A DNA stretch of 64,000 nucleotides. Source: Candidatus Omnitrophota bacterium. Lineage in GTDB: Bacteria > Omnitrophota > Gorgyraeia > Gygaellales > Profunditerraquicolaceae. Numbering within the stretch: the first letter of the stretch is position 1; each line of letters opens with the position of its first letter. The position numbers were made by a program, and so were the translations under genes. The stretch spans positions 3,825 through 67,824 of the forward strand of contig JAHJCJ010000069.1 in assembly GCA_018812825.1 (NCBI GenBank), read 5' to 3'. Positions 47,188 through 47,277 of the stretch are shown in pieces. Below the pieces are notes generated by a model, which was not told the DNA's origin, ran no database searches, and worked only from the letters and a program-made list of their open reading frames with translations.

Positions 47188-47277
47188 CTTTAAATGAGCG
47201 CTTGACTTACGAATACGCAGTATGAGTAAGTCAATGCGCGAATTTGAGCACCTTATGCTCTAATTTAGCGAAATCCT
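47188..47277 (-). promoter_or_regulatory. Conserved structured 5' leader element (copy 2) upstream of purA; the main hairpin lies at 47198..47239
   Basis: See copy 1 at 20535..20627. Identical architecture and spacing to the SD (aaagga). Confidence 0.5.

Follow-up and report, generated by a model that had tools for sequence, protein, structure and literature searches.

The REP and BIME sequences of enterobacteria are short, hairpin-forming, interspersed repeats of operon spacers, co-transcribed with their neighbours and arranged singly or in modular clusters; they stabilise the upstream mRNA and, near a stop codon, affect translation. REPs are about 35 nt long, GC-rich, present in both orientations and mostly 3' of genes, and they carry a GTAG motif. 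MIRUs are located between cistrons inside operons, are oriented with transcription and preserve downstream expression; they comprise tandem direct repeats with small ORFs that overlap the flanking stop and start codons. The BOX sequences of Streptococcus pneumoniae are intergenic and modular (boxA, a variable number of boxB, and boxC) and form a stable RNA structure, with possible effects on neighbouring genes. CREE, from Neisseria, are found in either orientation with a TA target duplication. Within its operon, the E. coli atpE intercistronic enhancer raises the translation of a high-stoichiometry subunit. BOX is among the small interspersed repeat families of the pneumococcal genome (PMC3049150). 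The plastid IEE, a short sequence between cistrons, directs processing into units that are stable and can be translated (PMC2230500). CREE are co-transcribed, and RNase III binds, cleaves or protects their RNA hairpin, altering the expression of adjacent genes; they have terminal inverted repeats and can create promoters (PMC2649163).

We analysed one stretch of 64,000 nucleotides from an Omnitrophota bacterium, referred to as the window. The long ORFs of the window are all on the minus strand, and the element described here must therefore be read on that strand. It is a modular intergenic element of 95-175 nt, uncatalogued before and found here in Omnitrophota alone. Two copies occupy whole spacers of the window, copy 1 between trmD and rplS and copy 2 between a LeuA-family gene and purA (Table 1). 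The sequence-only reading had already taken the purA leader for the element that precedes rplS and had placed it between the LeuA-family stop and the purA ATG, and both claims held. A 28-nt core, GAGCATAAGGTGCTCAAATTCGCGCATT, occurs exactly twice in the window (47233..47260 and 20583..20610, both minus) and had zero matches in 100 shuffles; the complete spacers have 82% column identity in the alignment and nhmmer E-values of 1e-47 and 1e-54. The extent proposed for the element, 47188..47277, was real but covers only the 3' two-thirds: the element spans the whole spacer because the P1/P2 hairpin domain belongs to it as well. No third copy was recovered from the window by nhmmer or by a P4 covariance model. 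Weak partial resemblances were seen at 61495..61542 and 16680..16721, and a hairpin at 54765..54825 is unrelated.

Table 1. Coordinates of the two element copies, their parts and the flanking genes in the window
Feature	Position	Strand	Evidence
Copy 2, whole LeuA-family/purA spacer, 153 nt	47182..47334	-	alignment, nhmmer
P1 domain of copy 2	47271..47330	-	minimum-free-energy fold; equivalent helix predicted in most other copies
P2 of copy 2, perfect 14-bp hairpin UAUCACGAAAAUAU / AUAUUUUCGUGAUA, 4-nt loop	47283..47314	-	inverted-repeat search
Central block of copy 2, CGCUAAAUUAGAGCAUAAGGUGCUC, optional, sequence conserved	47246..47270	-	28-nt core, fold, copy comparison
P4 of copy 2, invariant long hairpin	47192..47245	-	fold, inverted repeats, covariation
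AAAGGAAAAA, then purA ATG (47179..47181)	47179..47191	-	GGAAAAAATG part already at empty orthologous sites
Segment inserted relative to empty orthologous sites, 141 nt	~47189..47329	-	comparison with L023, L013
HMGL-like/HCS_D2 (LeuA-family) ORF	47335..48573	-	stop TAG 47335..47337
Adenylosuccinate synthetase (purA) ORF	45913..47181	-	ATG 47179..47181
Copy 1, whole trmD/rplS spacer, 159 nt	20525..20683	-	alignment, nhmmer
trmD ORF	20684..21370	-	
rplS ORF	20168..20524	-	

The element resembles REP and BIME as a dispersed, hairpin-forming and presumably co-transcribed repeat of operon spacers; it differs from REPs in its length, its constant sense orientation, its end at the next start codon and its ribosome-binding motif. 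CREE are 100-150 nt long, lie beside genes, are polymorphic for presence or absence between strains and are co-transcribed (PMC2649163). The element differs from them in its single orientation and in lacking terminal inverted repeats and a clear duplication. BOX is comparable in modularity, but has no sequence relationship to the element and is not tied to start codons or ribosome-binding sites (RBS). Unlike MIRUs, the element is built of hairpins, with no tandem arrays, no direct repeats and no small ORF running through. The IEE and the atpE enhancer are functional analogues of the mechanism that we infer below, and one copy of the element precedes the gene for V-ATPase subunit K; both are single-locus sequences rather than dispersed repeats, and the likeness is one of function, with no similarity of sequence or structure claimed. 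The L19 leader (Rfam RF00556) is, like copy 1, a structured RNA upstream of rplS. The element differs from it and from other ribosomal-protein leaders in that no Rfam match appeared up to an E-value of 10 and in that non-ribosomal genes are also preceded by it. Strict sense orientation, the start-codon end and the built-in ribosome-binding motif set the element apart from REP/BIME, CREE, BOX, MIRU and IEE.

A known RNA family was rejected as an identity for the element. Rfam 15 returned no matching family for the window at gathering thresholds, just chance-level microRNA and sRNA matches for both copies at E up to 10, and tRNAs only for seven related loci. Phage, plasmid and viral collections contained no match, and an origin from such sources was rejected as well. 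The literature search turned up no account of an element of this kind from Omnitrophota.

Read along the direction of transcription, the element opens with a 5' hairpin, P1, in which P2 may or may not be inserted; an optional central block follows, and an obligatory irregular hairpin of about 55 nt, P4, comes last. The outer helix of P1 in copy 2 pairs AGAUCCU (47324..47330) with AGGAUUU (47271..47277), the family form being AGAUCC(Y)/(R)GGAUUU; within it, a UC/UC internal loop and a short GCU/AGC helix enclose P2. The latter is a variable, optional module, with another sequence in copy 1 and missing from L006, L010 and L017-L019. The central block has the family form CGCUAAA..GAGCAUAAGGUGCUC and is lacking in the short forms of the element; a 5-bp hairpin, P3, is possible in it (GAGCA 47256..47260 with UGCUC 47246..47250, loop UAAGG).

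The 5' side of P4 in copy 2 reads H0 AAAU, UC, H1 GCGC, a bulged A, H2 UUGACUUAC, UC and H3 AUAC; after the apical loop UGC, the 3' side follows as GUAU, UC, GUAAGUCAA, GCGC, UC and AUUU. In the family, this form is AAAU-UC-GCGC-A-(9 bp)-UC-(4-6 bp)-loop and back to GCGC-UC-AUUU. The segment from H1 to H3 is the hairpin 47198..47239 of the sequence-only reading, confirmed by the fold and by its inverted-repeat arms. Copy 1 has the same architecture with another P1/P2 type and two compensatory differences in P4, which are those that had been reported: in the aligned copies, a G-C pair in copy 2 stands against A-U in copy 1 (UUGAC/GUCAA, UUAAC/GUUAA), and U-A against C-G (AUAC/GUAU, ACAC/GUGU).

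The 3' foot of P4, UCAUUUAA, leads straight into the RBS or the start codon of the next gene. Long forms continue with AAAGGAG(G), 5-10 nt and ATG, and they supply or preserve a correctly spaced ribosome-binding motif. An equal spacing had been claimed for the two window copies; this is true from the hairpin to the RBS (GCGC-UCAUUU-AAAGGA), but not from AAAGG to the ATG, which is 5 nt away in purA and 11 nt away in rplS. At the other end, P1 begins 0-8 nt past the upstream stop codon in nine of the ten intercistronic junctions checked. The folds of both window copies allow a three-helix junction to be drawn for the long form. P1 of type B and P4 are alike (..AUUCGC...GCUCA..UUU), so the element may go back to the duplication of one hairpin unit.

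Three other spacers or motifs of the window touch on this anatomy. Upstream of the ORF 60480..61409, the spacer 61410..61581 (minus) contains a hairpin, the central-block-like GCGCUAGAUAAAGACUAUAAGGUGCUUGAAUU, a second hairpin and GCGAAGGAUCUCUGUA-ATG, and it may be a diverged relative (nhmmer weak, E 0.01-0.1). At 16700..16772 (minus), AUGAUUUCACUAAAUAAAAACAU-ATG resembles the start of the central block in L011, GGAUUUCGCUAAAYAAAAACAU (nhmmer E ~1e-3); this may be a remnant or chance. The motif AGCGAAGGAUC, found near several starts (window 54608.. and 61410.., and L013), is the reverse complement of the 5' strand of type-B P1.

Both window copies fold far below shuffled sequence in energy (z = -7.0 and -6.0). 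Across 14 copies, 91% of the P4 cells are paired and 11 of the 17 pairs show double changes; none of 500 shuffles reached this, and partner-slid controls were 18-41% paired. With P4 extended to H0, H1 and H2 in 17 full-length copies, pairing rises to 96% and nine of 17 pairs covary, including the outermost A-U helix H0, which touches the RBS (UAAU/AUUA in the secY copy of L001). For the whole structure, the same number of copies gave 88% paired and 15 pairs with double changes. P4 is thus maintained by compensatory change, as in a generic structured cis-acting RNA. Covariation support is moderate for P1 (17 copies, 83-89% paired, mostly one-sided C-G to U-G changes, two pairs double-changed) and absent for P3, where 17 copies show one-sided changes only and L003 and L011 have the helix disrupted. 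The linkers AAAUUC and UCAUUU and the internal UC/UC loops are constant amid changing helices, which points to sequence-specific recognition by some partner.

An element acting at the RNA level is favoured, not proven, because G-U pairs on the sense strand exceed A-C pairs (41 vs 21) only by a lean of 2:1 and folding energies are strand-symmetric. The sense strand is no stabler than the antisense strand, so the structure may also fold as single-stranded DNA. Coding of a small ORF, as in MIRUs, was rejected: no open frame is conserved across copies, and 16 of 17 have stops in all three frames. A 40-codon frame does run through the secY copy of L001 (868..990), its ATG overlapping the rplO stop (ATGA) and its stop lying directly before the secY ATG; it is probably accidental because other copies do not conserve it.

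The RBS is unpaired in the centroid folds of both window copies. Predicted RBS accessibility was 0.52 for element-bearing genes vs 0.46 for other genes (p = 0.02), and 0.53 for purA with the element vs 0.63-0.87 for its orthologues without it. The idea that the hairpin keeps the RBS open was rejected on these values, which are barely above the genome background and below the element-free purA orthologues. Judged by eye, three further ideas were inconsistent across copies and were discarded: sequestration of the RBS by P1 sequences, motifs of the sigma-54 or CsrA type, and a likeness between P4 and the epsilon enhancer of phage T7 (UUAACUUUA). At most other genes of the window, a strong ribosome-binding motif is missing; at many starts none can be recognised, and many genes overlap the one upstream. 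The AAAGGAG(G) of the element is among the strongest such motifs there.

About 20 further copies were collected, all from Omnitrophota (Omnitrophica) assemblies among the named sources; one source is labelled Planctomycetales, and its L19 is 88% identical to that of the window. A pattern scan of species-representative genomes provided three loci, a metagenome contig scan anchored on different blocks provided nine, and protein-guided look-ups of orthologous regions provided additional copies. Exact-sequence look-ups of the window PurA and L19 found neither on record, and their near-identical relatives were reached through homology searches. The copies can be dense: two are present in the 64 kb of the window and three in 6.9 kb of L001.

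Every copy found (about 20 locus/genome combinations) is in sense relative to the downstream gene, which starts 2-18 nt past CTCATT in every case. The downstream genes are rplS, rpsK, infA, secY, eno, pfkA, purA, htpX and those for an L27-like protein, V-ATPase subunit K, an AsnC-like regulator, a small membrane protein and a lipoprotein; most encode abundant housekeeping proteins. Some of them need a higher output than the upstream cistron, as rplS does relative to trmD and V-ATPase subunit K relative to subunit I. The short forms at secY and infA of L001 also lack a ribosome-binding motif and adjoin the ATG directly. A link of the element to downstream expression appears reasonable because its 3' end meets the RBS or start of a co-oriented gene in every copy.

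The trmD/rplS junction carries the element in every relative examined (L002, L017-L020), including contigs without a purA copy, in versions that are long or short and with or without P2. Its core is 89-91% identical to copy 1 in three long-form relatives and 81% in the short-form L017, vs 62-67% at four-fold degenerate sites of the flanking genes. This excess over the degenerate sites suggests that the rplS-copy core is under constraint; homogenisation could also explain the identity because modules have visibly been swapped between copies.

Other junctions of the ribosomal operons change between full, short and empty states over short time scales. Genomes with identical S11 have 30 nt (empty), 99 nt (short) or 173 nt (full) between rpsM and rpsK. 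At rplO/secY and map/infA, only some genomes hold the element, as a short form; otherwise the two genes overlap and are coupled. Short forms also occur at the same genes as long ones, namely rplS in L017 and rpsK in L025-27. As purA, secY, infA and rpsK all function without the element in close relatives, any benefit it brings is dispensable.

At purA, the element was inserted recently and in this species only, adding about 141 nt in front of a pre-existing RBS. This follows from L023 and L013, relatives with PurA 92-93% identical and conserved gene order, in which the spacer is just 12 nt long and has the same GGAAAAAATG. The junction reads TAG AAAAA(GATCC...CATTTAAA)GGAAAAAATG in the window, with the insertion in brackets, TAA AAAAA GGAAAAAATG in L023 and TAA AATGA GGAAAAAATG in L013; the insertion left the purA RBS unchanged. 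A purA-specific leader was rejected, since the purA of these relatives carries the same GGAAAAAATG without the element. Remoter relatives have purA spacers of 68 and 101 nt with unrelated sequence. In the independent same-species assemblies L021 (99.99% identical over 21 kb) and L022, the copy is base-for-base identical to that of the window. Its P4 matches the rplS P4 of L017 exactly and that of L002 almost exactly; the P4 of the window's own rplS copy differs. Between filled and empty purA sites a duplication of AAA is possible, but AAA is also the conserved 3' end of the element, and no target-site duplication was seen at the rpsK and secY sites.

Other spacers of the window are variable too. 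The lptB/tig spacer (54608..54817) has a different long hairpin, GGCCACGAUUUAGC...GCUAAAUCGUUUGGCC, and a 13-bp A/T palindrome; L014 (2330..2500) shares this arrangement, and L013, L023 and L015 have something else or nothing in its place. Turnover of intergenic hairpin modules seems to be general in the clade. Between tgt and queA (22474..23666), an AT-rich ORF of 198 aa (22809..23405), with no Pfam match and an R-x4-H motif (RNKVAH), is flanked by GC-rich inverted repeats at 22589..22608 and 23547..23566 that are 95% complementary. The same gap holds HNH_5, ORF6N and a flavodoxin-like gene in L017 and a 435-aa unknown in L018, or is a geneless gap of 43 nt, and it looks like an insertion hotspot. 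The largest non-coding gap of the window is an AT-rich spacer of 639 nt (4672..5310) with several hairpins and no ORF of 110 aa or more.

The reading that we prefer, at about even confidence, is that of an intergenic RNA element that is modular and co-transcribed, that recombines or is mobile, and that either serves as an intercistronic leader or is tolerated as one. Its transcription, its processing and its effect on translation are inferred from sequence. Transcribed together with the genes on either side, the element would work at the RNA level as a leader module, either intercistronic or 5'. The upstream cistron would end in P1 as its 3' hairpin, the single-stranded linkers rich in A and U would be candidate endonuclease or binding sites, and P4 would be left as a hairpin that protects the 5' end and offers an unpaired, A/U-rich region for ribosome binding. 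With both hairpins folded back, the upstream stop and the downstream start would stay close in space. Such closeness would account for tolerance of the element at junctions that once overlapped, were coupled and had no ribosome-binding motif (rplO/secY and map/infA). The invariance of the unpaired nucleotides implies one common trans-acting partner, which might be a hairpin-specific RNase, an RNA-binding protein or the ribosome. The family would spread or homogenise by recombination or some route of mobilisation and be kept where it helps to adjust the output of neighbouring cistrons relative to one another.

A purely selfish interspersed repeat of the REP, PATE or MITE kind, with no function at the RNA level, is unlikely in our judgement; it is a main rival, together with the operator discussed next. 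An enzyme encoded elsewhere would mobilise such a repeat in the form of single-stranded DNA and recognise its hairpins, and the orientation and position of the copies would mirror nothing more than the insertions that a compact, operon-packed genome can bear. Several copies per genome and presence/absence polymorphism, as in interspersed repeats, agree with it: the empty orthologous sites at purA, secY, infA and rpsK are clean and belong to very close relatives, and P1/P2 and P4 types are combined as a mosaic across loci and genomes. The terminal inverted repeats of MITEs are missing, the only inverted repeats being the internal P2 and P4, with no arms that span the element. The element does have hairpins near both ends, as do PATE and other IS200/IS605-derived elements, which insert 3' of a fixed target of 4-5 nt; its left flanks share nothing beyond a stop codon. 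GGTA(A)G stands just 5' of P1 in many copies, not all, and resembles the GTAG of REPs; a single orientation was seen. The folding energy without strand asymmetry and the variable hairpin modules of neighbouring spacers also speak for a selfish repeat. Against it, each of the roughly 20 locus/genome combinations is in sense and ends at a start codon, the long forms bring or keep a correctly spaced ribosome-binding motif, the trmD/rplS copy is retained in every relative examined, and sense-strand G-U pairs are twice as many as A-C pairs. Moreover, there is no conserved target sequence, no clear target-site duplication and no transposase gene in the gene tables of the loci.

That the element is the operator of a global trans-acting regulator, or a riboswitch that reads a global signal, is improbable. 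In such a system, the P1/P3/P4 junction with its invariant unpaired nucleotides would bind a protein, small RNA or small molecule and co-regulate a post-transcriptional growth regulon of ribosomal proteins, IF1, SecY, glycolysis, purA and ATPase. It would suit the mostly growth-related downstream genes, the three-helix junction that the long form allows, and the strong conservation of the unpaired segments GGAUUUCGCUAAA, UAAGGUGCUCAAAUUC and CUCAUUUAAAGGAG amid variable helices. The central block is dispensable, however, as the short forms at rplS (L017) and rpsK (L025-27) show, and the same gene occurs with or without the element among close relatives. No expression platform is visible either: the RBS is unsequestered in the predicted folds, and P4 is followed by UCAUUUAAAGG rather than by the tail of an intrinsic terminator, none of which was called in the scan of the gene strand. 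The heterogeneous gene set, which extends to a lipoprotein, a small membrane protein and an AsnC-like regulator, also fits poorly.

Equally improbable, to us, is a self-propagating expression cassette with its own RBS and a binding site for a dedicated trans-acting factor, the insertions of which would recruit genes such as purA into a post-transcriptional growth regulon. The hairpins with UC/UC loops and the invariant linkers would form the binding site of that factor. The short form would allow initiation without a ribosome-binding motif at secY and infA, where the two hairpins would hold the upstream stop and the downstream start together.

We consider it very improbable that the element is an internal promoter cassette placed before highly expressed genes inside operons. 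In one subtype, hexamers such as GATAAT or ones like TATAAT occur in the P2 loops, and the copies of L004, L007 and L011 head transcription units just downstream of good -10 boxes. Consensus scans, however, were negative for a promoter or a terminator within both window copies, P2 is optional and variable in sequence, and the covariation of the helices would not be expected of a promoter. Where promoters are visible, they stand upstream of the element, which places it within the transcript. Elsewhere in the window, the spacer downstream of purA and before an OmpA-family gene (45796..45912, minus) has a hairpin and a good sigma-70-type promoter (TTGACT, 17 nt, TATATT), so the organism uses conventional promoters.

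A purine-responsive riboswitch or attenuator specific to purA is hardly credible, having nothing but the position upstream of purA in its favour and, against it, the same element before unrelated genes, its absence from purA of close relatives, the lack of a terminator and the lack of any Rfam match, including to the purine, ZTP, PRPP and ppGpp classes. A purA-specific sensor is excluded by the data, and a terminator, a promoter or a small ORF is unlikely.

For annotation, these results are a warning against naming the purA leader a purine riboswitch. If the reading as a co-transcribed intercistronic leader is true, the closely related alleles at purA, rpsK, secY and infA, whether filled, short or empty, offer natural controls for an effect on operon expression. 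The element would be nature's equivalent of the insulators and bicistronic junctions used as parts in synthetic biology, and translation starts would be linked to a repeat with mobile-like dynamics. In the Omnitrophota, a phylum of uncultivated, very small cells whose operons are tightly packed on one strand, a dispersed modular RNA element would then be the standard spacer and leader before many of the most-expressed genes.
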